NCBI GenBank assembly: GCA_963757515.1
Contig: CAVWRV010000005.1
Location: forward strand, 39,870 to 103,869
Source of the DNA: an uncultured Acidobacteriaceae bacterium
GTDB lineage: Bacteria; Acidobacteriota; Terriglobia; Terriglobales; Acidobacteriaceae
Reading direction: 5' to 3'
DNA: 64,000 bases
The notes beneath the pieces are model-generated. The model worked only from the letters and a program-made list of their open reading frames with translations. It had not been told where the DNA came from and made no database searches. Made by a program: the position numbers and the translations under genes. Every line of letters begins with the position of its first letter. The stretch's first letter is position 1. Positions 4,731-59,502 of the stretch are shown here, piece after piece.

Positions 4731-5867
4731 TTACCGATACCCGAGCAACCCCTTCTCCAAAGCTGCAGCTTCCGCGTCGGTATCAGTAAACGGGAGCTGT
4801 AGTGCCAGCTTCATCCGCTTCATCACCTTGTCGTCGACCTTCTCAATCTTGTACTCCGCAATGATTGCGGTAAGGATCATCATGTAGAACTCTCCGGCGA
4901 GCTGGAAGTGGCTACCAGCGAGAAGCTCGAACGATGATGCCTTCAAGGTGAAGCCGCTTACACCGGCTGAATGCGAATACCAACTCAGTTGCGGGTAACG
5001 CACCTCATAGATTTCTTCATACGGCATCTTCAACAGAGCGGCCCGCTGTTTCAGGTTCAACCCAGACCAGTGCTCTACCTTCTTCACACCTGGCCAGAGC
5101 TTCGCCTGCTCAGCCGCTACACGGCTTTCGTTGTTCTTGATGAAGTCCTGATGCACGGTCACGTCCGTTTTCGACGTGGGGTTGGCGGCCTTGTACGCCA
5201 CAATCTTCCGCGCTGCACGAATCTTCTCCACGTCAGTGAATGCGCCCACTTTTTCGATGGCATCAGAAACTACGTCTATGAGCTTCATGTCGATAGCCAG
5301 CTCAAACAATGAGCGCGTCACCATAGCGATTGCTTGAAAGTCGCGTACTGTGCGGAGGTTCAACAGGCTTTCCACGTTCATCCTGACTCGCTGATAGATC
5401 GTGGAGACGAGGGTGTCGCGGTTCGTCTTCAACACGATGGTGGACACGACCGGCCCCACGCTCTCTTTATCGAAGACGTTGAGCCCTTTCAGAGAGGTGT
5501 AGTACCGCTCCGTTGCCGTCATCACATCCGGGCCGATCTTCAGTTGCAGCTTACGAAACACACGCATGGCGTCATGCGAGGTGAACTGTCCACGCGGCAT
5601 GCCGGTCACATGCGCGAACGCCTGTTTGATGGGGAACTGCACACCATCCACTTCGACATAAAGCTCACGAATGGATTCCGGCTCTACGTCCTGCAAGCGG
5701 GAGCGAACGTCAGCAGCACCCAGGGAGAACTCGTTTCCGGCTACTGTAAAGGTCATGTTTTTTTCCATCACTATCGCATCACCACCTAATAATATACCAT
5801 CTTTAAGAAAACCTACTATAAAACTGACTTTCGTTCTGTTTACGTCAATCGACTCAAAATGAACCAT
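4731..5867 (-). CDS. hypothetical protein (orphan, low-GC), no recognisable domain
   Basis: 378-aa uninterrupted ORF in a clearly lower-GC stretch (AT-rich 5' end at 5760-5867). Protein-like composition. No motif I can assign. One weak R-x5-H (RGQFTSH). Confidence 0.6.
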   Translation of the reverse strand: MVHFESIDVNRTKVSFIVGFLKDGILLGGDAIVMEKNMTFTVAGNEFSLGAADVRSRLQDVEPESIRELYVEVDGVQFPIKQAFAHVTGMPRGQFTSHDAMRVFRKLQLKIGPDVMTATERYYTSLKGLNVFDKESVGPVVSTIVLKTNRDTLVSTIYQRVRMNVESLLNLRTVRDFQAIAMVTRSLFELAIDMKLIDVVSDAIEKVGAFTDVEKIRAARKIVAYKAANPTSKTDVTVHQDFIKNNESRVAAEQAKLWPGVKKVEHWSGLNLKQRAALLKMPYEEIYEVRYPQLSWYSHSAGVSGFTLKASSFELLAGSHFQLAGEFYMMILTAIIAEYKIEKVDDKVMKRMKLALQLPFTDTDAEAAALEKGLLGYR

Positions 5868-6663: not shown

Positions 6664-7408
6664 TACCTTTTTCCTACATCTTCTGCGTGCGCACTCCTGG
6701 GCCAAATTCGAAACTGAGCCGCATGTACGAGGCCCGCAACACACGTCTAAGCGTGTACGCCAAGCAACGTATCCCTGCCGCCCTGATGACAAGCAACAGA
6801 GCACTACCCTGGTTACCAAAGAAATCTTCTAACCCTCTCGACGAAGCCCAAAAACCGTACTACTGTGAGAGTAGCCACCCCCATCAGCGCCGTCTTACTT
6901 GACGGTCCTGCCTGGCTTTGCACCGGCCCACTCTGCCCCTGCATCCGCCGCCAACAGCCGGGAAAGCATCAGCGCCTGCCGGCATGATGACGGGTGTAGC
7001 AAACGCGAATGTGACATCGAAAGCGACGGATTCACGCCTGTCGGCAGCGTTTCTGTGTCCCGTGGGGGGAGTCTGCGGAGAGCACAAATCACCGTGCCGC
7101 AACCAGGGTACGCTCAGTGCGTCCTCTTGATTAAGCAGTTTTGACAACCTGGAAACCACCATCGGAGGCCGGTGCGGCGCCGGACTACACGGGCGCACAG
7201 ACGAGCAGGCGGGACGTTTGCCAATACGCAGTGTGGGCAGAGAGATCGTCCCGCTTGCCACCGGACTGACTAGGGGAAAGTCGGACCAGCCGCCTGCGGC
7301 AAGGCAACGTTCTGCCGTCCAAGTTTTGGAGTCGAGCGTTCCCCGGTCGGCATATGATCGCCAAAACATCGGTACGGAGCGGCAAGCCCCCACCTCAGAA
7401 GGGGACTT

Positions 7409-7435
7409 ATAGCGCTTATAGCGCTTTTAGCGCAC
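7409..7435. repeat. tandem 9-mer array TATAGCGCT-TATAGCGCT-TTTAGCGCA followed by T-run
   Basis: Read directly: three 9-bp units containing palindromic AGCGCT. Followed by CTTTTCTTTTTT. Related array at 8742-8791. Confidence 0.8.
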
Positions 7436-7560
7436 TTTTCTTTTTTGCCGGGGCTAAAACGTTTGCGTGAGAACCCCGGTTCAGAATGGAGTCTCAGCGG
7501 GACAGGGCGTAGGGTATTACCACGTTCGTAAGAGGGCATCTGTTCCTTCATTTACGAAGG

Positions 7561-7674: not shown

Positions 7675-8744
7675 TCCAGCTCCGGGGACATGGGGACAAA
7701 CAGGGCGACCTGATACCTATTGCGGCATTTCCTCGCGGAGCCAACAAAATTAGGGAGCTAGCAAGGCACGGAGAAGCTCGGGGAACGTCTGAGGCAAGAC
7801 TGACTTTGGAGCTTGCTATCGAGCAGGGTCGGGGCGGATTCGCCATGATCTCCGAGTTCCGGGCAATGCTGGAGCGCTTCGATTCGGAACACGACCGCTC
7901 CCTTCTGGCGCGGATATTACTTCTTCGCTTGCACGTCGAAGTCGGAGACCGGCCAGATCGATATTGCAGGCTCTACAGCAAGATGATCAAAAACGCCCAA
8001 TTATGGGATGCGCATTCTGAGGACAACGTCACTCCCAACACTTTAAAGCGAACATTGTCTATCACTGTTAGTCGTCTAGCTGGCTCTCGGGAGCAACAAT
8101 TCAAATGTCCAGCTTCCGCGGAGTTTGTTTCCTGATTCGCCGCCGGCACCAATTATGGAGGACGACATCCGGTCGCCCGCGAACTCCGCCGCGCCCGCGA
8201 CTGGGCTACCGCGACTCCCGAAATCCTTTTTAGCCGTAATGCCGCTGCCCGCGAGCTCTGGCAGGACCGCTATCCCGCCTTGAGCCAGCTCCGGCCAGGC
8301 CTGCGGGGCGCCGCGACCAGCCGCGCCGAGGCCCATGTCCTGCGTCTCAGCGCCATCTACGCCGCCCTGGACTCCACCTCCGTCATCGGCCTGCCCCATC
8401 TCCAGGCTGCCCTTGCCGTATGGGATTACTGCTACGCCAGCGCCGCCCTCCTCTTCGGCATGTCTACCGGGGACCCGATCGCCGACCGTATCCGCGAAGC
8501 CATCGAGGCCTCCGGCGACGGACTGTCGAAGTATCAGATCAGGCGTCTCTTTCACGGCCACGTCGAGGGCAACCTTATCGACGCTGCCCTCGAAAAACTC
8601 GTGGCCCTGGGCGGCGCAATCCACGCTCGAAGTGAGCCCACCGCAGGTCGACCCTCTACCCGCTGGTCGGTCATCGCAGAGGACGAACACGAAGAAAATG
8701 AGGAATTGGTAGCGGAGGACGAGGCACCGGCAGAAGATCAGTAG
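7647..8744 (+). pseudogene. ORF interrupted by a single in-frame TGA (8133-8135); 5' part low-GC, 3' part high-GC with strong GC3 bias
   Basis: ORFs 7647..8135 and 8280..8744 are in the same frame. Reading continues through the TGA (…AEFVS*FAAGTNYGG…RELWQDRYPALSQLRPG…). Only a TTG start is available after the stop. The 3' part ends …EDEHEENEELVAEDEAPAEDQ. No family assignable. Confidence 0.35.
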
Positions 8745-8791
8745 GGCTTTTAGCGCTTATAGCGCTTATAGCGCTTTTAGCGCATTTTTTT
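8742..8791. repeat. tandem 9-mer array TAGGGCTTT-(TAGCGCTTA)x2-TAGCGCTTT-TAGCGCA followed by T7
   Basis: Read directly. The first TAG is the stop codon of ORF 8280..8744. Same unit as the array at 7409-7435. Confidence 0.8.
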
Positions 8792-8835
8792 AGACGCTCC
8801 GAGAAGCCGGAGCGTCTCCCTTTGCGGTATTTTGG
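8792..8835 (+). terminator. candidate intrinsic terminator
   Basis: Perfect 10-bp stem AGACGCTCCG-agaagc-CGGAGCGTCT (8792-8817) followed by ccctttgcggtatttt. Confidence 0.45.
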
Positions 8836-12841: not shown

Positions 12842-12882
12842 CCAGCTGGAGGGTCACATAACATCGTGATCACGCAAATGCG

Positions 12883-13150
12883 TTAAGAATCTTGACCTGC
12901 CACGAACCCGGGTGCCCCATACCCCCGATTTCCTGTAGAGCTTGTTGGGTTCCGCGGACTTCATGCGCCTTTCGCATATGCAGCCCTTGCCAGCGCCGCG
13001 TGCAGGAAATTCGGGGTATCTCGCTCGTTTTCGCGAGATGTGGGGGGCGAACGTTGGTCGCCCCTTTACAACCTGGACGGATACCAGTCGCAGTGCAGTG
13101 GAATCCCACATCTCGCGAAAACGAGCGAGATCTGGGGCACCCGGGGTTCT
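12883..13150. repeat. R1-family composite palindromic element, module order L-Y-X-R
   Basis: Outer inverted ends …cttgacctgccacgaacccgggtgccccat / …ggggcacccgggg. Module Y is bounded by acccccgatttcctg…caggaaattcggggt. Module X is bounded by atctcgctcgttttcgcgagatgtgggg…cccacatctcgcgaaaacgagcgagat. Compare 59148-59502. Confidence 0.8.
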
Positions 13151-16947: not shown

Positions 16948-19900
16948 ATGACATTTATGACGATCCAGAAATATATCGCCTCTCTGCGCGACGTCCGGAG
17001 AGACGTCTGCAGAATTTGCGTAACACGAATTCTACCCAGCCTGTTGATGTGCTCGTTGTTTGCCATTGCTTCCCGCGCGCAGGTGACCACGGGAAACCTG
17101 AGCGGGCAGGTAATGGATTCCTCCGGAGCGATCGTGAGCGATGCTGGTGTCACCGCGACCGCGGCCGATACGGGCTACGAGCGGACGACCAAAAGCGGGT
17201 CTGACGGCAGTTACATTCTTGCCGATCTCCCCATTGGCAATTACACCTTAAGCGTCACGGCGCCGGGCTTCACGAATATCAAGCAGGGGGTGGCGTTGGG
17301 GGTCGGCGAGCGGGTTCGGCTGGACTTCCATCTTACGGTCGGTGCAGACAATCAGACGGTGCAGGTAAGTGCGCAGGCGGTGAACCTCTCCCGCGATGAC
17401 GCGTCCATCAGCACGCTGGTTACCTCAGATACCATTGCCAGCACCCCGCTCTATTTGCGCAACTGGGACGACCTGCTACGCACGGTGCCCGGGGTGCAGA
17501 TCAACCGCTACACCAATCAGAGCGGAGCCACGTCGTCAGGCCGTACGGGAAGTTTCAACGTCAATGGTATTCATTCGTTGCAAAACAACTTTCTTTTGGA
17601 TGGCATCGACAACAACACGTTTTCTGAGAATGTGCAGGAGCTTAGTACGGAGTCCGCACACCCTTCGGTGGATGTGATCTCAGAGTTCAATGTGATTACA
17701 AATCCTTATTCGGCGGAATATGGCCGGGGGCCGGGCGCGGTCGTGTCTGTGAGCACACACAGCGGATCGAACCAGCTGCACGGCACTGTCTATGAGTTTG
17801 TGCGCAACCAATATTTCGACTCTTTCGACTATTTCACCAAGCGCAGCACCAACCGGAAAGCAGAGGACAACCAGAACCAGTTTGGCGCCAGCCTGGGTGG
17901 TCCGATTAAGCGCGACCGTCTCTTCGGCTTTTTCAATTACGAGGGCACGCGCATCAAGCAGGGCCTCTCGCGCATCTCAACCGTGCCTCTGGATAACGAA
18001 CGTATTGGCGATTTTAGCAATGCGGCTGCCGCCGCGGCAGGGGTTGCAAAGTACCCGACGGTGTACGACCCGACCACTTGCCCTACGCCATACACCCTCA
18101 ACAAAGCCTGCCAGGCATTCCCCAATAACCAGGTCCCGGCGGCACGGATCGACACCTCGGTCGCCGCCCTGATCGCTCTCTTCCCCGAGCCCAACTACAA
18201 GCCGGGCTCGGCGACGTTCCCCGAGCTGAACAACTACACCCGCACCGGAGCAGCCACCGACTTTAACAACAGCTACGACGGCCGGGGCGACTGGACGCCT
18301 TCTTCCGCGGATACGGTTTTCGTCAGATACAACTATTTCAACCGCACTCGGTCCATCCCAGGGTACTTTGGCGGCTTGGCTGACGGCACCTCGACCTCGG
18401 CCTGGGGTAACCAGGCTCTGAAAGGTCATAGTGTGGTGTTGGGTTGGACGCACGTGATGAACCCGCGCATGGTCAACGAATTCCGCTTTGGCTGGGTGCG
18501 AAACGTCTCCTACGCCCAGCAACAACCGTTCTCTCTCCCCCAGCAGGCGGGCAGCTTTGTGCCTGGCATCCCTAGCAACCCGGCGATCGGTGGGGGCGTA
18601 CCGTTGACCACTTTCACCAATAAGACCTTTCTGGGCTCTCCGGATTTTCTGCCCAAGCGGCAGATTCCAATGCTCTATCAATACAACGACACCCTCGGCT
18701 GGCAGCTGGGCAAGCACAATCTCAAGTTCGGCACCACCGTCTACCTGCCCATGCGCAACATCTTTCAGGATGAGCCGGGCACGCGCGGCGACCTGACCTT
18801 TACTGGAGTGTTTACCGGCCTTTCGTACGCGGACGGTTTGCTGGGCGCAACCCAATACACGCAATTGACGAATGTGTTTTTCGTCGATCAACGTATCTGG
18901 ATGGCTTCAGGCTTTGTGGAAGATGATTGGAAAGTGACGCCCCGGCTCACCCTGAATTTGGGCTTGCGTTACGATTTTGCGACTCCGGCGCTCGAAGGAC
19001 AGAACCGGATGGCCAACTTCGATCCTGGCGGAACCGGGTCGCTGGTCTTCGCCAAATCGGGTTCGTTGAGCAGCCGGGCGCTGGTGAACACCAACAACAG
19101 GAACTTTGGCCCGCGCTTCGGTGTCTCGTACGGACTGGACGCGAAGACCGTGGTGCGTGGAGGGTACGGACTCTATTACACGCTGTTCGAGCGCTTCGGC
19201 AGCGAAGATCAACTGGCGCTGAACCCTCCTAATCTGGTCAATAAGACGCCGGCCAGCAACACCTACCCGGTCCTGAAGCCGTCGGTTGGATTTCCGTCGA
19301 ACTTCCTCGATCCCTCGACCATCAACTTCAACGCACTGCAAAATTTCCACATTCGCGCGCTCGATCCCACGGCGCACTCGCCGAGTGTGCAGCAGTGGAG
19401 TTTCGGCTTCCAACGGGAGGTGAGCAGCTGGCTGGCGGAGGTCGACTATGTGGGGACCAAATCGACCCACCTCGACGTGATTTACGACTATAACCAACCC
19501 CTCATCGCGGGTGGGGTAAGCACCAAGATCCAGCCATACACCAATTTCGGACAGATCGAATATACGACTCCGATCGGCTTTGGCAACTACAACGGATTGC
19601 AGGCCAGCCTGACGCACCCGCAGGCGAAGGGGTTCAGCGTGCGCGTGGCCTACACCTACTCCCGCAGCCTCGATAACACGCCGGAAGAGTTGGAGACCAA
19701 CTCGGGCGATCCGCCGAACGGTCGCAACTATAGTTCCTGGTATGGTCCCAGCGACTTTAATATCCCACAACGCATTTCGGGCACGTATATCTACGAGCTT
19801 CCCTTCGGGCATGGCAAGCAGATGCTGAATTCCGGTCCGCTGGCCTGGGTCTTCGGCAACTGGCGCACGTCTGGGGTGTACACGTTCTATAGCGGCCATC

Positions 19901-20340
19901 CAATTACGGCCAACTGGGGTAGCGAAAGCAGCCTGCTTGACGCGTACGGGTATGCGACGGCCGTGCCCAACGTAGTCGCGCCGGTGCACTACCCGAAGCA
20001 GCAAAGCTGCTTCTTCTACACCGCACAGAACAGCGCGTGCTCGGCCTTCGGCTCCGGCTTGACGAGTCCTTTTGCCGACCCCGGTAAGTACGTAGTTGGC
20101 AACGGCAGCAGGAATACCCTGCACGGCCCAAATACCCAGGTCTTCGATGCGGCGCTGATCAAGAACATACCCATCCACGAGAGCTGGAATGCGGAAGCGC
20201 GGTGGGAGGTCTTCAACGTCGCCAACCACGCTTTGTTCGGCCAGCCAAACGGGAATGTGAGCAGTGGAAGCGCGGCCTCCATCACCTCGCTTTCGGGGGA
20301 TCCACGTGTCATGCAGTTTGCGATACGCATCAGCTGGTAA
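16948..20340 (+). CDS. TonB-dependent outer-membrane receptor with N-terminal carboxypeptidase-regulatory-like domain
   Basis: 1130 aa. CarbopepD_reg-like N-terminus (GQVMDSSGAIVSDAGVTAT…GNYTLSV). Plug/barrel features. C-terminal aromatic residue. Confidence 0.9.
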   Translation: MTFMTIQKYIASLRDVRRDVCRICVTRILPSLLMCSLFAIASRAQVTTGNLSGQVMDSSGAIVSDAGVTATAADTGYERTTKSGSDGSYILADLPIGNYTLSVTAPGFTNIKQGVALGVGERVRLDFHLTVGADNQTVQVSAQAVNLSRDDASISTLVTSDTIASTPLYLRNWDDLLRTVPGVQINRYTNQSGATSSGRTGSFNVNGIHSLQNNFLLDGIDNNTFSENVQELSTESAHPSVDVISEFNVITNPYSAEYGRGPGAVVSVSTHSGSNQLHGTVYEFVRNQYFDSFDYFTKRSTNRKAEDNQNQFGASLGGPIKRDRLFGFFNYEGTRIKQGLSRISTVPLDNERIGDFSNAAAAAAGVAKYPTVYDPTTCPTPYTLNKACQAFPNNQVPAARIDTSVAALIALFPEPNYKPGSATFPELNNYTRTGAATDFNNSYDGRGDWTPSSADTVFVRYNYFNRTRSIPGYFGGLADGTSTSAWGNQALKGHSVVLGWTHVMNPRMVNEFRFGWVRNVSYAQQQPFSLPQQAGSFVPGIPSNPAIGGGVPLTTFTNKTFLGSPDFLPKRQIPMLYQYNDTLGWQLGKHNLKFGTTVYLPMRNIFQDEPGTRGDLTFTGVFTGLSYADGLLGATQYTQLTNVFFVDQRIWMASGFVEDDWKVTPRLTLNLGLRYDFATPALEGQNRMANFDPGGTGSLVFAKSGSLSSRALVNTNNRNFGPRFGVSYGLDAKTVVRGGYGLYYTLFERFGSEDQLALNPPNLVNKTPASNTYPVLKPSVGFPSNFLDPSTINFNALQNFHIRALDPTAHSPSVQQWSFGFQREVSSWLAEVDYVGTKSTHLDVIYDYNQPLIAGGVSTKIQPYTNFGQIEYTTPIGFGNYNGLQASLTHPQAKGFSVRVAYTYSRSLDNTPEELETNSGDPPNGRNYSSWYGPSDFNIPQRISGTYIYELPFGHGKQMLNSGPLAWVFGNWRTSGVYTFYSGHPITANWGSESSLLDAYGYATAVPNVVAPVHYPKQQSCFFYTAQNSACSAFGSGLTSPFADPGKYVVGNGSRNTLHGPNTQVFDAALIKNIPIHESWNAEARWEVFNVANHALFGQPNGNVSSGSAASITSLSGDPRVMQFAIRISW

Positions 20341-20443
20341 GTGAAGAGAGGGGCCACGAAAGGCAGGTTGTTGCCAGATCGTTCCGGGTTGTTCTGTCGT
20401 CCAGGCGATCGCTGGCGGTGGTGCGAGAGCGGAGTCATACTGC

Positions 20444-20760
20444 TTGAAGGGTACGGGCTTCAGGCCGTACATCCTCACCGAACGTCAATGGGCTTTCCAG
20501 GCTGCGGAAAAACCCAATGTTTTTGAAGGGTACGACCTTTAGGTCGTACGTAAACTATTGCAAACAGGTGCGGCTTTAGCCGCTGAGGGAACAACTCTCG
20601 CCCCTCCAGGACTTTTTCCGCAGCCTGTTTAGCCCCTGAGGTTGCGAACCAGCTAGCTCATCGAAAAAAAGGCTGGCTAGCCCCTGAAGAACACTCCCTC
20701 AGCGGCTAAAGCCGCTCACCGAGGCAAAGTTTGGCAGGGCTGAAGCCCCGCCCCTTCAAA
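20444..20760. repeat. R2-family composite palindromic element (copy 1)
   Basis: Hairpin GTACGACCtttaGGTCGTAC. Interleaved inverted pairs caggctgcggaaaaa/tttttccgcagcctg and gcggctttagccgctgaggg/ccctcagcggctaaagccgc. Repeated tagcccctgagg. Confidence 0.75.
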
Positions 20761-20851
20761 GATCACAATAAGAGTTTCAGAAACCTGATTTCGACAGGTC
20801 TGCTGGGCAACCCGCTTTACATAAGTTTCGGGGGCTCGCTGAGGGCAAGGG

Positions 20852-21874
20852 ATGCGTCGAAAGTATTTCCAGCTTGGTCATTTTCTGCTGGCCGCGACTC
20901 TTGGTTTTTCGTCTTGGTCCGGCGGCCTGATGGCTCAGAAGGTACCCGATCCAGGATCGCGTACGGTCATGGATGCGCATAACTGCTACCCCTACTTTGA
21001 GTGGTGGGGCAACCGCATTGACCGGGCTCTTTCTACCGGAACGCCGCTGGCGATCGAGCAGGATCTCGGCTGGTATAGCGACCCCAAGACGGGTCGAAGC
21101 TGGTCCGTCGTAACCCATGGAGCGCCCATGACCGGGCAGGAGCCGACCATGGATAAGTATTTCTTCGAGCGCGTGCGCCCCATCGTGGAACAAGCGATGA
21201 AGGAAGGGAACCATGGGAACTGGCCGCTGATCACCCTCAATCTGGATTTCAAAGATAACAAGCCGGAACATCTGGCCGCGGTTCTTGAACTCCTGCGCGC
21301 GCATCAGGACTGGATCAGCAGCGCTCCCAGAAATCGAGATCCTTCGCTGGTTGAGCCCCTGCGGGTGAAGCCGATCCTGGTGCTGACGGGTGAAGCCGAT
21401 GCCCAGCAGCGGGTCTTCTACGACCAGCTTGCAGAGGGTGATGCCGTGTTGGCATTTGGCGCGGTTCACTCCGAAGGTAAGGACTACCAGGCAACGCCCA
21501 AACTAATCGGCACTGAGAAGGCGACGAATTACCGCCGCTGGTGGAACAATCCCTGGCGGGTGGTTGAATCTGGCGGACAGGCTCACGCCGGCCCGTGGAC
21601 CGCAGAGAAAATGGTGCGGCTGCAAGCGCTGGTAAACCTCGCGCACGCTAATGGCCTGTGGATCCGCTTCTACACCTTGGATGGAGCCACCAGCGACGAA
21701 TTGAGCAGTTTTGGATGGTTCAAGAGCTACAACTTCGGCGCGCTGGAGGCGGCGCGGGTGCGGTGGCAAGCCGCGATTGCTGCGGGTGTCGACTATCTGG
21801 CCTCAGACCAGTACGAGCAAGTGGCAGAGGAGATCCGTAGCGGTCCACGCGCGGGGCGGCCAACCAAGCCCTAA
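20852..21874 (+). CDS. secreted PLC-like phosphodiesterase-fold protein (PI-PLC X-box-like AHNCYP motif)
   Basis: 340 aa. N-terminal signal peptide. The AHNCYPYFEWW segment resembles the catalytic His region of PI-PLC X / GDPD-type TIM-barrel phosphodiesterases. Tentative. Confidence 0.55.
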   Translation: MRRKYFQLGHFLLAATLGFSSWSGGLMAQKVPDPGSRTVMDAHNCYPYFEWWGNRIDRALSTGTPLAIEQDLGWYSDPKTGRSWSVVTHGAPMTGQEPTMDKYFFERVRPIVEQAMKEGNHGNWPLITLNLDFKDNKPEHLAAVLELLRAHQDWISSAPRNRDPSLVEPLRVKPILVLTGEADAQQRVFYDQLAEGDAVLAFGAVHSEGKDYQATPKLIGTEKATNYRRWWNNPWRVVESGGQAHAGPWTAEKMVRLQALVNLAHANGLWIRFYTLDGATSDELSSFGWFKSYNFGALEAARVRWQAAIAAGVDYLASDQYEQVAEEIRSGPRAGRPTKP

Positions 21875-38603: not shown

Positions 38604-38797
38604 GGGGTTCTCAGGCTGCGAAAAAGTCGCTCTCTGGGGAATTGTGGGTGCCCCATATCTCGCGCTTTTTGCGAGATGTGGGAAAGAAACTCAACTAAAA
38701 ACAGAACCCGTCGGTAACCGGCCGCTTTTCCCACATCTCGCAAAAAGCGCGAGATAAGGGGTACCCACAATTCCCCAGAGAGCGACTTTTTCGCAGC
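38604..38797. repeat. R1-related element: ~40-bp terminal inverted repeats enclosing an X-type palindromic module
   Basis: gctgcgaaaaagtcgctctctggggaattgtgggtgcccc (38604-38643) and its inverted partner ggggtacccacaattccccagagagcgactttttcgcagc (38758-38797). Inner module atctcgcgctttttgcgagatgtggg…cccacatctcgcaaaaagcgcgagat. Confidence 0.75.
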
Positions 38798-38874: not shown

Positions 38875-39861
38875 ATGTCCGCGCCCCGTTCTCATGGACT
38901 CCCCAGCCCGACGGTCTGTGCGTGGATTGTGATTGCCATGCTGGCCATGGTCGTTATTCCGGCGGCCATCACTCTCGAAACCATACACCAACCCGCTCCG
39001 CTCATGCCTGTCAACCAGAACTCAACACCGCATGGGTACACCTTTAGTCTTCTGCTGTTTATTATTCCCAGCGCGTTGATCGCCGGATGGTTTCTACCAA
39101 GCGAGGGATTGCACATCCCTCGGCGCGCGTTCTATTGGACCCTCGGCATTCTTGTCCCGCTGGGTTGCTTGCTCGATTTTGTTTTCGCGCAGTGGTTCTT
39201 CGACTATCCCAACCGTGGCGCAACCCTGGGTATTTATGCCCCGGCGCTGGGTAGGCCCGTTCCGGTGGAAGAGTACGTTTTCTATTTCACCGGCTTTCTC
39301 ATCGTTCTTCTTTTATATGTTTGGCTGGGAGAGTTCTGGCTGGCGGCTTACAACGTGATCGACTATCCTGGCGAAGCTAACAAGGTGCGCCGGCTGTTAC
39401 AGTTTCATCCCAGGTCGCTGCTTCTGGCGGCAGTGCTGATTGGTGCTGCGTGGTTTTTCAAGAAAAATTTTGCCGTGCCGGACGACCGGCCTGGCTTTCC
39501 CGGCTACTTCACCTTCCTCGTCGCCGGGGCTCTGCTTCCGGCAGCGAGTTTCTTCCCGGTGGCCCGGCGCTTCATCAACTGGCGTGCCCTCAGCCTCACA
39601 CTGTTCTTTATGCTACTTGTCAGCCTGCTTTGGGAAGCGACTCTGGCTGTCCCCTACAACTGGTGGAACTTCCAGCATCGTCAGATGACTGGTATTTTTA
39701 TCGGCGCCTGGTCGGGCCTACCCATCGAAGAAGTTTTCGTTTGGGTTGCGGTTACCTACGCCACGGCAATTGTCTTTGAAGTGGTTAAGGTGTGGCTGGC
39801 GTCAGAACGCTCCGTGCGCGACGCTATGCTGGGCACGAAACGAAGGGCCAAGGATCAGTAA
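38875..39861 (+). CDS. hypothetical polytopic membrane protein
   Basis: 328 aa with ~8 TM helices. No assignable motif. Confidence 0.7.
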   Translation: MSAPRSHGLPSPTVCAWIVIAMLAMVVIPAAITLETIHQPAPLMPVNQNSTPHGYTFSLLLFIIPSALIAGWFLPSEGLHIPRRAFYWTLGILVPLGCLLDFVFAQWFFDYPNRGATLGIYAPALGRPVPVEEYVFYFTGFLIVLLLYVWLGEFWLAAYNVIDYPGEANKVRRLLQFHPRSLLLAAVLIGAAWFFKKNFAVPDDRPGFPGYFTFLVAGALLPAASFFPVARRFINWRALSLTLFFMLLVSLLWEATLAVPYNWWNFQHRQMTGIFIGAWSGLPIEEVFVWVAVTYATAIVFEVVKVWLASERSVRDAMLGTKRRAKDQ

Positions 39862-39901
39862 CTTCCGCAAGCAGCTAGGTCATCGGGCGGAGGAGGAAAA
39901 T

Positions 39902-40501
39902 ATGTTTCAAACCGATGAATCCCTTTCGACAGTCACTACAATTAGAACCATGAGCTCTCCCATTCAAACGATTCCCGTGCGCCGCATCACCGGCGAAGAA
40001 ACGAACCTCGGCGAGTATAGCGGCAAGGTTCTCCTGGTCGTCAACGTTGCTTCCAAGTGCGGACTTACCAAGCAGTATGAATCTCTGGAAAGGCTTTATC
40101 GTGATTACCGCGATCGCGGCCTCGTGGTCGTCGGTTTTCCGGCGAACGATTTCAAAGGCCAGGAGCCTGGCAGCAACGCTGAAATCGCGAATTTTTGCAG
40201 CGGCAACTTTGGCGTCGACTTTCCCCTGTTTGAAAAGATCACCGTGGTTGGGGAAGGGAAGCACCCGCTCTACAAGGAGCTGATCGCAGCCCAGCCGAAG
40301 TCCACCAGCACCTCCGAGGTCCCGTTCAGCGAGGACTTGAAGCGCTACGGGATCCAGCCGAATCCGGAGCCGGAAATACTCTGGAATTTCGAGAAGTTTC
40401 TGGTCGGCCGGCACGGCCAGGTAACCGCCCGCTTTTCTCCCAACACCACACCCGACGATCCGGCGCTGGTGAGGGCGATCGAAGCGGAACTAGCCAATTG
40501 A
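39902..40501 (+). CDS. glutathione peroxidase
   Basis: GGAGGAGGA SD before ATG 39902. GPx motifs VLLVVNVASKCGLT (Cys-type), FPANDF, W…NFEKFLV. Confidence 0.9.
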   Translation: MFQTDESLSTVTTIRTMSSPIQTIPVRRITGEETNLGEYSGKVLLVVNVASKCGLTKQYESLERLYRDYRDRGLVVVGFPANDFKGQEPGSNAEIANFCSGNFGVDFPLFEKITVVGEGKHPLYKELIAAQPKSTSTSEVPFSEDLKRYGIQPNPEPEILWNFEKFLVGRHGQVTARFSPNTTPDDPALVRAIEAELAN

Positions 40502-40511
40502 GGAAGACACG

Positions 40512-40691
40512 ATGCACCCCGAAGAGGTCTTCATGTTGTTCGTGGAGGCGATCAATCGTCACGACGTGCAAGCCTTAACATGGCAGACGCCTGCTGCCTG
40601 GAAGGCCGTGATTCGTGAGAGCAAGATGATGGAATGGCGCGTGTTCGCAGACAACAAGCCGGTGTACGAGATTCTGGCGAAGCGGAACTAG
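40512..40691 (+). CDS. 59-aa ORF resembling only the N-terminus of an NTF2/SnoaL-like protein (possible remnant)
   Basis: GAGGAAG SD. EVFMLFVEAINRHDVQAL is a typical NTF2-like N-terminal helix. Ends 30 nt before the R2 repeat. Confidence 0.3.
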   Translation: MHPEEVFMLFVEAINRHDVQALTWQTPAAWKAVIRESKMMEWRVFADNKPVYEILAKRN

Positions 40692-40721
40692 TGGTGTGTC
40701 TCACGCAGATTATCGCTTATC

Positions 40722-41216
40722 TGCAGTGAAGGGTACGGGCTTTACAGGCTGCGGAAAAACCCAATGTTTTTGAAGGGTACGACCTTTAGGTCGTACGTAA
40801 ACTATTGCAAACAGGTGCGGCTTTAGCCGCTGAGGGAACAACTCTCGCCCTCCAGGACTTTTTCCGCAGCCTGTTCAGCCCGTACATATAAAGGAGGCGA
40901 AAACGATGGGCTTTAGAGTCTGCGTGAGAGCTCTGCACTGAGTCTCGAAGGGGCGGCTGAACTTGGGGCTAAAATTTCAGCCGTCCCTGGCGGGACTAAT
41001 CCAGATTCGTGCCTGCTACCCAGGACTATCGTCCTGGGTTACTTTCAGCCCGTCCCTTCGGGACTCGGTGCAGAGCTCTCACGCAGCTCCTTAGCCCCTG
41101 AGGCAAGCTTTTCGTCTGCGATATGCTGAAAAGCATGCCTCAGCGGCTAAAGCCGATTTCGTTCAAAGCAGTTACGTACGACCTGAAGGCCGTACCCTTT
41201 TTAGCCCCTGAGGGAA
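40722..41216. repeat. R2-family composite palindromic element (copy 2, expanded)
   Basis: Shares the first ~150 bp with 20444-20600. Carries extra nested palindromes (ctgcgtgagagctctgcac…gtgcagagctctcacgcag, ccaggactatcgtcctgg, gtcccttcgggac) and a second cctcagcggctaaagccg copy. Confidence 0.75.
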
Positions 41217-41381
41217 CGCGCGGCCCACCGGAGTTGATTCTGAATGCCCTCAAAATGGACCTGAGTATTGACGCACTACACCAGCCAACTGTGAGCCGAA
41301 TTACTGCCGGATTGCCACCAACAGTTCAAAGAACAGCGGTATATTTTCATGCGATAATCCCAGCCAAGCCATTCTGCGGCG

Positions 41382-41969
41382 ATGAGATTGCATGGAAAGG
41401 GTGTCGGTTTGGCGTTAAAAAGGCGGGAGGTTCTGCATCTTTTAGCCTGTGCGACCGGATCTGCATTCGCCGCTGGCGATCGCTTGGCCGCGCAAGCGAC
41501 ACCAGAGCGCAAGAGCCCGATAGAACCGCAGCCCCAGTCTCAACTTAATCCCGTTCATCCTCAGGCCGTTTCCCATGAAGACATTCAGATGGAGAAGGTA
41601 CTAGGCATCGGCGGACTGTTTTTTAGGGCCCAAGACCCGGCGGCCCTAGGTCATTGGTATCAAGAACACCTGGGCATTTCCTTGACGCCGCAGAACTACC
41701 ATGAGTCTGTCTGGCAAACCGAAGCTGGTCCTACCGTGTTCACCCCATTTCCTCTTAAAAGCAAGTATTTCGGCGATCCGAAACAGACGTGGATGGTCAA
41801 TTTCCGGGTGCGAAATCTGGACAGGATGGTCGCACAGCTACGGGGGGCGGGAATCACCGTTGACGTTGATCCGCAGGAATATCCAAACGGGCGCTTTGCC
41901 CGCCTTCACGATCCAGAGGGAAATCCAATCGAACTGTGGCAACCAGCAGGATCCGGCGCAACAACATAG
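41382..41969 (+). CDS. VOC-family (glyoxalase/bleomycin-resistance fold) protein with Tat-like signal
   Basis: RR-motif leader (KRREVLHLLACATGSAFAAG). VOC core IGGLFFRAQDP…FARLHDPEGNPIELWQP. Confidence 0.7.
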   Translation: MRLHGKGVGLALKRREVLHLLACATGSAFAAGDRLAAQATPERKSPIEPQPQSQLNPVHPQAVSHEDIQMEKVLGIGGLFFRAQDPAALGHWYQEHLGISLTPQNYHESVWQTEAGPTVFTPFPLKSKYFGDPKQTWMVNFRVRNLDRMVAQLRGAGITVDVDPQEYPNGRFARLHDPEGNPIELWQPAGSGATT

Positions 41970-45247: not shown

Positions 45248-45790
45248 TTACGACCTGCCGGGCCGAGAAACCAGAAGACGGCCCCCTGAGGCAAGTGTGA
45301 GCCGGGACGGCGGCGAGATCGCACTCAGATTCAACGCATTTAGATGCGCTGCCTCACGGCCACCCAAGACAACAACTGCTTCGTAATCGCCTGACGGGAC
45401 TTCAGAGAATGCGAAGCTGCCGTCCACAGCAGTGCGCGCCACCAGTTCGCCATGTCCGCCGACCAAGTGTATCTCTGCTGAGCGCAGCGGCCGACCGAAC
45501 GCATCGGTCAGAGCTCCCTTCCATGCACTTGCCTCACCAGCCGGCAATTGCGTCTTCAGGTAAACGGACCGTTCATTTGGATTCTGCGTTGGTATGTAAA
45601 CAATGGGGTTTTGTCCGCCAACAACATTCCTGCTCTCGGGTAATATCGCCGGCGCGTGGACTTTGATGGGTTCGCGGCTGCGGCCGGCCAGGGGGGAGGC
45701 TGTCGTTCGCTCGCTCCCACTGAGGTGGACCCGGAAGCCTCCTCGGGCTCTGATCGGGCAAAGAGTAAGGCGCTCTCTTGAATTGAACAA
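45248..45790 (-). pseudogene. partial duplicate (C-terminal CarboxypepD_reg-like domain only) of gene 51589..52545
   Basis: Nucleotide block 45241-45752 is ~90% identical to 51582-52088. The N-terminal 45 codons are unrelated. Confidence 0.5.
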
Positions 45791-51588: not shown

Positions 51589-52545
51589 TTACGGCAACTT
51601 GCCGGGCCGAGAGACCAGAAGACGGCCGCCAGAGGCAAGTGTGAGCCGGGACGGCGACGAGATCGCACTCAAATGCAGCGCATTTAGATGCGCTACCTCA
51701 CGGCCACCCAAGACAACAACTACTTCGTAATCGCCTGACGGGACTTCAGAGAATGCGAAGCTGCCGTCCCCAGCAGTGCGCGCCACCAGTTCGCCATGTC
51801 CGCCGATCAAGTGTATCTCTGCTGAGCGCACCGGCCGGCCGGACGCATCGGTCAGAGCTCCCCTCCATGCACTTGCCTCACCAGCCGGCAATTGCGTCAG
51901 GTACACGGCCCGTTCATTTGGATTCTGCGTTGGTATGGAGACAATGTGGTTTTGTCCGCCGACAACATTCCTGCTCTCGGGTGATATCGCCGGCGCGTGT
52001 GACTTTGATGGGTTCGCGGCTGCGGCCGGCCAGGGCCGAGGCTGTCGTTCGCTCGCTCCCACTGAGGTGGACCCGGAAGCCTCCTCAGACCCGCTCATGG
52101 GTGTATCTGGGGTCGTCGCTCGATTGAGTCGTTCCACCACCGCTTCAATCGGAGACATCCGTCCATTCGAACCCGGGACGGGCAGGTGAGCGATCGACCG
52201 GCTCAGCAAAAATCCAAAGGCAACGATTGTGGCCAGCGACAGCGTGCCGCCGAGGAGAATCGATCCACGCCCTATCGGTTCCTCGTCCAGAACCTTGAAG
52301 CAGGGAATACCCTCGGCATTGGGTGAAAGCGACGCTGCTTCTGTCGCCGCATAGGAGTTCCGGTAAGCCTGCGGGAGTCCGACTAAAACGTCCGCCACCA
52401 GGTCCCACAAGAGGCGGGCCCTTTTGAAAAAACCTGTCTCGTCGCGGAGACGGTCCCGAATCAATTGGAGCGCCTCACCCTCGTATTCCTTACGGAACCT
52501 CGAAGGATACAGACGAAACAGGCGAGTGTACATCTTCTCAGACAT
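51589..52545 (-). CDS. PadR-associated membrane-anchored protein with C-terminal carboxypeptidase-regulatory-like domain
   Basis: 318 aa. Central TM (ILLGGTLSLATIVAFGFLL). C-terminal AEIHLIGGHGELVARTAGDGSFAFSEVPSGDYEVVV. 8-nt overlap with the PadR gene. Confidence 0.7.
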   Translation of the reverse strand: MSEKMYTRLFRLYPSRFRKEYEGEALQLIRDRLRDETGFFKRARLLWDLVADVLVGLPQAYRNSYAATEAASLSPNAEGIPCFKVLDEEPIGRGSILLGGTLSLATIVAFGFLLSRSIAHLPVPGSNGRMSPIEAVVERLNRATTPDTPMSGSEEASGSTSVGASERQPRPWPAAAANPSKSHAPAISPESRNVVGGQNHIVSIPTQNPNERAVYLTQLPAGEASAWRGALTDASGRPVRSAEIHLIGGHGELVARTAGDGSFAFSEVPSGDYEVVVVLGGREVAHLNALHLSAISSPSRLTLASGGRLLVSRPGKLP

Positions 52546-59085: not shown

Positions 59086-59147
59086 CTATTTCCCCGCTTC
59101 CAAGGATACTCGATGTGGCGGATCTAGCCTGGATCGCGCAATGGCGC

Positions 59148-59502
59148 TAAGAATCTTGACCTACTACGAACCCGGGGTGCCCCATATCTCGCTCGTTTTT
59201 GGCGAGATGTGGGGGGCGACCGTTGGTCGCCCCTTTACCACCTGGACGGATACCAGTCGCAGTGCAGTGGAATCCCACATCTCGCGAAAAACGAGCGAGA
59301 TACCCCGAATTTCCTGCACGCAGCACCGGACAAGACCACTTGTGCGCCTTTCTTTAAGGAAAGGCGCATGAAGTTTGCGGAACCCACTAAGCTCCTCCGG
59401 AAATCGGGGATATGGGGCACCCGGGTTCGTGGCAGGTTAATCGCAGGACGCTTTGTTACATCGCGGGATAAACGTGCATCTGTGTGACGCACTACACTAG
59501 CA
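59148..59502. repeat. R1-family composite palindromic element, module order L-X-Y(inverted)-R plus shared right tail
   Basis: Same L end, X module and outer R end as 12883-13150. The Y module is present as the reverse complement and on the other side of X. The right tail ggttcgtggcaggttaatcgcaggacgctttgt…cactacactag also occurs at 11057-11125. Confidence 0.8.

Follow-up and report, generated by a model that had tools for sequence, protein, structure and literature searches.

In a 64,000-nt stretch of the genome of an uncultured Acidobacteriaceae bacterium (the window), two intergenic loci, at 20444-20760 (locus 1) and 40722-41216 (locus 2), carry long inverted repeats in an interleaved order. 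Both are very probably nested mosaics of non-coding mobile DNA, in which a miniature transposable element with inverted repeats (MITE), here called MITE1, sits within an older palindromic element. The initial annotation had left a choice between a structured RNA, a recombination site and a MITE. The MITE stands for the block bounded by the first of the two interleaved stems, which has terminal inverted repeats (TIRs), 4-bp duplications and a dispersed distribution, but the pseudoknot that was read from the interleaving does not. The reading rests on features that are directly visible in the DNA: inverted repeats, precise ends, target duplications, a target of the form GGC|TNNA|GCC, dispersal, and nesting of one element within another.

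A repeat finder and pattern matching were applied to both loci. All the sequence features that the initial annotation described are present. In stem A, CAGGCTGCGGAAAAA pairs with TTTTTCCGCAGCCTG (20498-20512 with 20613-20627, and again 40745-40759 with 40859-40873); all four sites are exact, and no further exact matches occur across the 64 kb of the window. The perfect hairpin GTACGACCTTTAGGTCGTAC lies at 20530-20549 and 40777-40796. Stem B joins 20570-20590 to 20695-20715 over 21 nt at locus 1 and 40818-40835 to 41138-41155 over 18 nt at locus 2, each time with 100% complementarity, and the order A, B, A', B' is found at both loci. The TTAGCCCCTGAGG-type motif is repeated as claimed, with 10 matches at two mismatches or fewer against 1.3 expected (none of 100 shuffles equals that number), and eight of the ten fall inside the two loci. 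The sharing of modules between the loci is uneven: a block of about 131 nt is 99% identical with a single 1-nt indel, but beyond this block just short modules are shared.

The shared block is far from limited to the window. A single scan of species-representative genomes, one genome per species, in which both TIRs were required 82-112 nt apart and TIR positions 3-14 were fixed by the search pattern, found MITE1 at a minimum of 119 loci elsewhere, nearly all in metagenome-assembled genomes (MAGs) of Acidobacteriaceae, Terriglobia, Terracidiphilus, Granulicella, Korobacteraceae and Bryobacterales; two further copies are in IMG/VR. Complete Acidobacteriaceae genomes also carry MITE1, among them OZ255702.1 (Granulicella sp.). 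None of the collected loci, cited below by their L numbers, comes from the genome of the window, and their flanks are unrelated to it; just the elements match. Among the matches listed, the closest copy is in L067 (93-94% identity) and the pattern-bounded length is 111-136 nt, which corresponds to a whole element of about 115-140 nt. MITE1 has no coding capacity, being crossed only by spurious open reading frames (ORFs) of at most 50 aa, and its 15-nt TIR is perfect in both window copies. It is thus what a MITE should be, a short non-coding element with TIRs, a 4-bp duplication and dispersed copies, its parent element being putative.

The flanks of the copies show how the element inserts. Our sample comprises the 121 listed copies with usable flanks, the two of the window included, and random positions in the same loci serve as control. 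A 4-bp direct duplication is perfect in 72/121 copies and has one mismatch in another 28/121, compared with a perfect match at 13/2420 control positions (0.5%). The duplicated tetranucleotides among the listed copies are TTTA (19), TAAA (14), TTCA (11) and TGAA (9), with CTAG, CTAA and others besides. As most of them lack self-complementarity, what they represent is direct duplication and not a longer inverted repeat. Two other readings of the flanks were rejected: an extended TIR, because the tetranucleotides are direct and not inverted repeats, and a TA duplication of the IS630/Tc1-like kind, which would make the ends of the element asymmetric.

Immediately outside the duplication the flanks are themselves palindromic. 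In the next 8 nt, at least five of the eight positions are complementary in 70/121 listed copies, against 2.9% in the control, and the rebuilt empty sites give the target consensus GGC|TNNA|GCC. In 42 of the 72 rebuilt sites the duplicated 4 nt are enclosed, with no gap, by a stem of at least 4 bp, and therefore it is the loop itself that is duplicated; the ten CTAG/CTAA rebuilt sites are without such closing stems. Judged from these reconstructions, the target of MITE1 is the loop of short GC-rich hairpins.

A plain segmental duplication or gene conversion between intergenic regions, with no transposition involved, would suit a pair of near-identical copies such as those in the window, both of which have imperfect flanking repeats. 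It is extremely improbable given that the same bounded unit occurs at 119 or more loci in many species, with precise ends and target duplications.

The duplications also bear on the kind of enzyme involved. A hairpin-rich element whose target is a hairpin loop could have been moved by an HUH/Y1 tyrosine transposase acting on single-stranded hairpins, of the type that mobilizes repetitive extragenic palindromic (REP) doublets (REPINs) through REP-associated tyrosine transposases (RAYTs), or of the 'TIRYT' or class 3 TnpA(Y1) type, and in Acidobacteria such Y1 transposases adjoin inverted repeats or high-copy hairpins (PMC3733652; PMC6006769). Against this stands the variable 4-bp direct duplication, perfect or with one mismatch, in 100/121 listed copies. 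To our knowledge, IS200/IS605-type elements and REPINs make no target-site duplications and cut beside a fixed tetra- or pentanucleotide; MITE1 instead has a variable 4-bp duplication on both sides, and we consider an HUH/Y1 origin of the A...A' block very unlikely.

The hairpins into which MITE1 has inserted in the window belong to a second, older repeat. Short-pattern scans of IMG/VR contigs yielded its anatomy: a Y unit, (T)GAAGGG followed by GTACGGGC-TTNA-GCCCGTAC (with a TTCA loop in the exemplar), and an X unit, GGGGC-TTTA-GCCCC followed by TGAGG, arranged as Y-X-loop-X'-Y', i.e., with two hairpin units per arm inverted around a short spacer, as in a REPIN. Four intact elements without MITE1 are present among the collected loci (L001 7338-7479, L003 1056-1194 and two in L074), and all four have the flanking Y/Y' pair. 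MITE1 also lies within this resident element at non-orthologous loci, in the X loop in L087 and in the Y loop in L067 and L074. From the sequence, both window loci are interrupted resident elements; MITE1 occupies the X loop at locus 1 and the Y loop at locus 2.

At locus 1 the resident left-arm Y unit TTGAAGGGTACGGGCTTCAGGCCGTAC (20444-20470, + strand), of a type also seen in the intact elements at L001 and L003, pairs with 20737-20759 over 23 nt at 83% complementarity. The left half of the resident X hairpin (GGGC) and the left target duplication (TTTC) follow at 20490-20497 (+), and then the 130-nt MITE1 copy 1 at 20498-20627 (+), with stem A/A' as its TIRs (20498-20512 and 20613-20627), recognized from the census and the target duplications. 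This copy has an internal Y hairpin (20523-20549) and an internal X unit, which is stem B (20570-20590); folded as DNA, the copy reaches −34.1 kcal/mol (z −5.8). At 20628-20641 (+) the right target duplication (TTTA) is followed by GCCCCTGAGG, the right-hand half of the X hairpin of the resident element, and joining 20490-20497 to 20628-20641 restores GGGC-TTTA-GCCCCTGAGG, the canonical X unit. The right arm of the resident element consists of the X' unit TCCCTCAGCGGCTAAAGCCGC (20695-20715, −), a reverse X unit that is the stem B' complementary to 20570-20590 over all 21 nt, and a degenerate Y' unit GGGCTGAAGCCCCGCCCCTTCAA (20737-20759, −), the inverted repeat of 20444-20470.

Locus 2 is interrupted twice. 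The left half of its left-arm Y, GTGAAGGGTACGGGC, and the left target duplication TTTA lie at 40726-40744 (+; inverted repeat of 27 nt, 93%). They are followed by the 129-nt MITE1 copy 2 (40745-40873, +; TIRs 40745-40759 and 40859-40873), which is 99% identical to copy 1 and has its internal Y at 40770-40796 and its internal X, stem B, at 40817-40837. At 40874-40885 (+) come the right target duplication TTCA, with one mismatch, and GCCCGTAC, with which the resident Y hairpin resumes; an equivalent MITE1 insertion in a Y loop, L098, has a perfect TTCA/TTCA duplication. The resident X hairpin is split in turn. Its left half GGGCTTTAG (40908-40916, +), with a junction identical to those in L067, L136 and L137, is separated from its right half TTAGCCCCTGAGG (41091-41103, +, found by motif matching) by another nested element, about 174 nt long and bounded by TIRs, here called MITE2 (40917-41090, no strand assigned), which has TTAG...TTAG flanks and arms of 37 nt (40920-40956 and 41050-41086) that are 92% complementary. 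The right arm of the resident element again carries an X' unit, the stem B' of this locus (CCTCAGCGGCTAAAGCCG, 41138-41155, −, 18 nt and 100% complementary to 40818-40835), and a Y' unit identified from inverted repeats (TTACGTACGACCTGAAGGCCGTACCCTT, 41172-41199, −). An extra solitary X unit adjoining the resident element, TTTAGCCCCTGAGGGAAC (41200-41217, +), emerged from direct repeats and motif matching.

This anatomy suggests how the interleaving arose. The older layer is the resident palindrome, with its two hairpin units per arm, into which MITE1, with its TIR CAGGCTGCGGAAAAA and a Y-X unit of its own, inserted at the X loop of locus 1 and the Y loop of locus 2; in both cases the 4 nt of the loop were duplicated. 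The inverted repeat of MITE1 is then stem A/A', the probable binding site of a transposase; its own X unit is stem B, and the X' of the opposite arm of the resident element is stem B'. The order A-B-A'-B' follows of itself once an X-carrying MITE has entered the left arm of a palindrome of this kind. In an automatic classification MITE1 is co-oriented with the interrupted Y-X unit in 23 cases vs 12, which is not significant by itself; if real, this bias would favour the A-B-A'-B' order.

The counts of the two halves of stem B agree with this. B and B' are opposite-orientation copies of one very common 17-20-nt X unit, and their complementarity is perfect because two family-consensus units face each other in opposite orientation. 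Within MITE1, no X variant is more frequent than the exact 17-mer of B (22/64 among the copies listed); beyond MITE1 this 17-mer recurs exactly in 7/74 cases and within one mismatch in 43/74. With the orientation of copies set by the internal X unit, an inverted X' lies at most 300 nt downstream in only 6/52 orientable listed copies, two of these six being the window copies themselves. By this comparison B' is not part of the MITE1 family.

The initial annotation preferred a structured non-coding or cis-regulatory RNA that relies on the interleaved pairing of A/A' and B/B', i.e., a pseudoknot. Its long, perfect complementarity, the covariation of local hairpins described below and the presence of a curated Rfam RNA motif in locus 2 are what such an RNA might show, and the RNA fold of 20440-20765 is, at −144.7 kcal/mol, far stabler than that of shuffled sequences (z −7.0). 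However, this z-score is expected of stacked palindromes, extreme values being built into palindromic mobile DNA, and the nested minimum-free-energy fold accommodates just one of the two long stems: B/B' and Y/Y' form, and A/A' is sacrificed. B' accompanies the element in just the 6/52 listed copies mentioned above, and the unit of which both stem halves are copies is ubiquitous. The element is found in unrelated gene contexts and in either orientation, the orientation relative to neighbouring genes being random in a crude longest-ORF test of 30 copies (++ 11, −− 8, −+ 6, +− 5), and the target-site duplications mark insertion events. Rfam models, searched over the whole window at gathering thresholds and over both loci at E≤10, gave no match to the 130-nt block, the sole match being that of Acido-Lenti-1 inside the second insertion of locus 2, and a tRNA/tmRNA scan found none. 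Promoter-like sites are at chance level in number; for terminators, neither element contains a + strand hairpin-T-run site, and the counts do not exceed those of shuffled sequence. With B' outside the repeated unit, B and B' copies of one common unit, only one stem used by the fold and orientation random, a reading of the interleaved topology as selection on structure is not supported, and we regard a pseudoknotted RNA as highly improbable.

The local hairpins within MITE1 behave differently. For covariation we aligned 36 oriented copies (alignment A2), in which helix A is fixed by the search pattern and the conserved interior comprises a hairpin of the Y type (offset ~31) and an X unit (offset ~77). 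Both sides have changed in 6/8 pairs of the Y hairpin; 96% of its cells are paired, and the compensatory variants include GTACGACC/GGTCGTAC, GGACGGCC/GGCCGTCC and CACGAC/GTCGTG. In the X hairpin a C-G pair switches to G-C (23 vs 12). This covariation is clearly above the shuffle and slide controls, relatedness being uncorrected in the shuffle control, and part of the signal reflects relatedness, with the copies falling into subfamilies. Set against the refuting condition of the initial annotation, the outcome is split: the element occurs far beyond the two loci, and compensatory changes are seen, in the local hairpins and not in the long-range interleaved pairing, of which helix B/B' is absent from most copies. 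The small Y and X hairpins appear to be maintained, which could point to a function at the level of protein or DNA, to co-option by the host, or to repair within the palindrome.

Co-option by the host, whether as REP-like stabilizers of mRNA, as terminators or as sites for nucleoid or topoisomerase proteins, would be compatible with a mobile origin. The paired state of the Y hairpin, the double changes in most of its pairs and the switch in X are what it would lead one to expect, and both window copies lie just 3' of genes. On the other hand, a U-tract terminator is absent on the coding strand, orientation relative to genes is random, the element is missing at the syntenic locus of a relative, and paired changes may also come from subfamily structure or palindrome-templated repair. 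We think a host role unlikely. The relative in question is a Terracidiphilus MAG (L131/L132), in which the spacer between the TonB receptor gene and a 344-aa gene measures 224 nt and holds none of these modules; this spacer has diverged too far for an empty site to be defined to the base, and the remaining homologues checked are not syntenic.

If MITE1 is a non-autonomous transposon, the enzyme acting on it in trans would be a transposase, probably of the DDE type, whose cuts are staggered by 4 bp, and the near-identity of the two window copies would reflect recent activity. The target might be recognized as a palindromic sequence (GGCTNNAGCC) or as an extruded hairpin. In its 4-base duplications and Y...R ends MITE1 would be reminiscent of the IS5 and IS701 groups. 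The autonomous partner was sought as relaxed TIR pairs 0.6-3.5 kb apart, with or without a duplication, and as solo TIRs beside long ORFs. The one candidate, in L031, is a truncated MITE beside a spurious ORF. A scan of IMG/VR with the 15-mer TIR gave mostly chance matches, among them a 2.4-kb TIR 'pair' in L211 and L195 that is coding sequence of an unrelated virus, and a BLAST search of plasmids gave no match.

Several points weigh against the nested mobile-DNA reading. A search of ~1 Mb of acidobacterial loci, of IMG/VR and of plasmids found neither an autonomous insertion sequence (IS) with these TIRs nor a transposase. The duplication is imperfect at both window copies, TTTC/TTTA at locus 1 and TTTA/TTCA at locus 2. 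The invariance of TIR positions 3-14 in the alignment is ascertainment, and the census of at least 119 loci, taken from one genome per species, does not give the copy number in the source genome. Finally, the Y and X hairpins stay paired through compensatory changes, which purely selfish DNA does not itself explain.

A more far-reaching view is that MITE1 is a self-seeding palindrome-centre transposon, whose transposase would cut exactly at GGC-NNNN-GCC stem-loop junctions and whose Y and X hairpins would be kept by selection, possibly as substrates for a second enzyme, of the HUH/Y1 type. Each insertion would destroy one target and deliver two, the Y and X hairpins of MITE1, leading to a 'Russian-doll' nesting; there would be two interacting mobile or host repeat systems across the phylum, with the Acido-Lenti-1 motif discussed below as a component. 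The nesting pattern cited for it comes from L051 and from three Y[MITE1]-X[MITE2] composites. We consider this view doubtful as a whole. In L051 (4339-4654), a reverse MITE1 and a small X-like palindrome lie inside the Y hairpin of another MITE1, and therefore the element's own hairpins do serve as targets.

Other arrangements among the collected loci concern the same units. A tandem array in L104 (2911-3058) has a 44-nt period, with right TIRs ending at 2926, 2970, 3014 and 3058; each unit joins the right inverted repeat of MITE1 to the duplicated 4 nt and the right-hand half of the Y hairpin, and the array probably arose by slippage between the internal Y of MITE1 and an identical target Y. 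Similarly doubled inverted repeats, 41-44 nt apart, occur in L062, L113 and L073. MITE1-type copies with CTAG/CTAA duplications are present in MAGs labelled Saccharimonadales and Deltaproteobacteria (L011, L025, L032, L041); they could be due to horizontal spread or to binning error.

MITE2, the second insertion at locus 2, is of interest for the RNA motif that it contains. Rfam Acido-Lenti-1 (RF01687) matches 41019-41065 with 38.6 bits against a gathering threshold of 37, over model positions 1-46 of 46. In the MITE2 homologue of L067, which is longer by 68 nt, each arm has the motif, and the window MITE2 lost one of its motifs through a 68-nt deletion. Inverted pairs of Acido-Lenti-1 matches are found in L067 (151-197, −, and 299-345, +), L069 (5204-5249, −, and 5361-5406, +), L064 (1907-1952, −, and 2060-2105, +) and L136 (1173-1217, −, and 1316-1360, +). 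The pairs have one motif per arm of TIR-bounded palindromes of ~170-250 nt (MITE2) that split a GGGGCTNNAGCCCC hairpin. Acido-Lenti-1 was described as an RNA (Weinberg et al., 2010, PMC2864571) and matches only MITE2, not MITE1. Its inverted pairing within a TIR-bounded element fits mobile DNA better than a free-standing small RNA (sRNA) gene, and suggests that, in these elements at any rate, the curated 'sRNA' forms part of mobile DNA. The MITE2 census gave no match in the viral scan and two in the metagenome scan, and therefore the mobility of MITE2 rests on a handful of copies. A composite in which a single arm holds MITE1 in its Y loop and MITE2 in its X loop exists three times, in the window (40726-41103), in L067 (127-560, reverse) and in L136 (~1090-1400). 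The three loci are non-orthologous and have differing Y variants and spacers; the composites may be independent hits by two site-specific elements or the result of spread of the composite.

The window contains further repeats. A third, longer relative of 186 nt (38612-38797, no strand assigned) has the ends CAGGCTGCGAAAAAG...CTTTTTCGCAGC-TG, arms of 71 nt that are 97% complementary and the flanks TTCT/TTCA; its end CAGGCTGCGAAAAAG is a variant of the MITE1 TIR with the matching change at both ends, and its arms hold the module GGGTGCCCCATATCTCGCGCTTTTTGCGAGATGTGGGA. At 12868-13149 and 59132-59456 there is another repeat family, its palindromes having the form ATCTCGC(T/G)CGTTTT(T)(G)CGAGATGTGGG; between the two places it is in part inverted. 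It includes a 94-nt block that is 97% identical and inverted matches of 82 nt and 59 nt, and is related to the interior of 38612-38797. Short arrays of a 9-nt unit, CTTATAGCG/CTTTTAGCG, stand ~1.3 kb apart at 7397-7448 and 8738-8798, and a direct duplication of ~490 nt with 93-98% identity (45253-45744 and 51597-52086) has its two copies 6.3 kb apart. Spurious ORFs run through the repeats at 40710-40841 (−) and 41123-41548 (+), with peptides such as ...RLKP...VRPKGRT... and ...QRLKPISFKAVTYDLKAVPFLAPEG....

As the initial annotation stated, both loci are intergenic, after a TonB receptor gene and after gpx, but the genes on either side are co-directional (+,+) and not convergent. Locus 1 has a TonB-dependent receptor gene (16948-20340) before it and, after it, a conserved gene of 340 aa (20852-21874); the latter has 3649 homologues, of which the best reaches 83% identity and those that are named belong to Terracidiphilus. 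Locus 2 follows gpx (39746-40501) and a 59-aa ORF and precedes a glyoxalase-family gene (41382-41969). The 59-aa ORF (40512-40691), directly upstream of locus 2, has no Pfam match and may be a gene remnant.

Compared with known bacterial MITEs, such as Correia of Neisseria, Nezha of cyanobacteria and others in two surveys (PMC3184786, PMC11602168), MITE1 is likewise short (115-140 nt), non-coding and dispersed between genes, with TIRs, a short duplication and a long hairpin. It differs in that its interior has two conserved hairpins of the very types that it inserts into, and in its target, the centre of a GC-rich palindrome, GGC|TNNA|GCC. A large MITE survey mentions many MITEs in phages of Acidobacteriae, without detail (PMC11602168), and in the literature that could be searched we found no description of this acidobacterial family.

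The nearest parallel in targeting is with ISs that insert specifically into REP sequences or the palindromic units of bacterial interspersed mosaic elements (BIMEs), such as IS1397 and ISKpn1. ISPpu9, ISPpu10, ISPsy8, ISPa11 and ISRm22 are further examples (Tobes & Pareja, 2006, PMC1525189). Like them, MITE1 uses short extragenic palindromes as hot spots and leaves split halves behind; those ISs are autonomous and belong to several families, whereas MITE1 is a 130-nt non-autonomous element of Acidobacteriota that duplicates the whole 4-nt loop. The resident element, for its part, resembles the REPINs, inverted REP doublets mobilized by RAYT (Bertels & Rainey, 2011, PMC3116915), and the BIMEs in being an inverted doublet of hairpin units, with a long hairpin, that is extragenic, repeated and mosaic-building, but it has two distinct hairpins per arm. 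The GTAG/CGTC tag of the REP superfamilies (PMC3733652) is absent from the resident units (GTACGGGC...GCCCGTAC, GGGGCTTTAGCCCC). Because this tag is lacking we do not file the resident elements as REPINs or BIMEs; the likeness is one of repeat architecture.

For annotation, these results explain strikingly structured intergenic DNA of soil Acidobacteriota as nested mobile DNA, and not as pseudoknotted RNAs or ORFs. Repeat-derived 'hypothetical proteins' likely pollute acidobacterial annotations, some Rfam Acido-Lenti-1 matches, at least, sit in TIR-bounded palindromic elements, and the elements themselves likely cause assembly breaks and recombination in acidobacterial MAGs. The points that we find most worth noting are the very clean targeting of palindrome centres and, as a side observation, the placement of Acido-Lenti-1. 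More than 100 insertions with target duplications document a MITE that hits the centres of GC-rich palindromes at single-nucleotide precision, and if its transposase is found, it would offer a tractable system for asking whether a target is chosen by its sequence or by the structure of an extruded hairpin.

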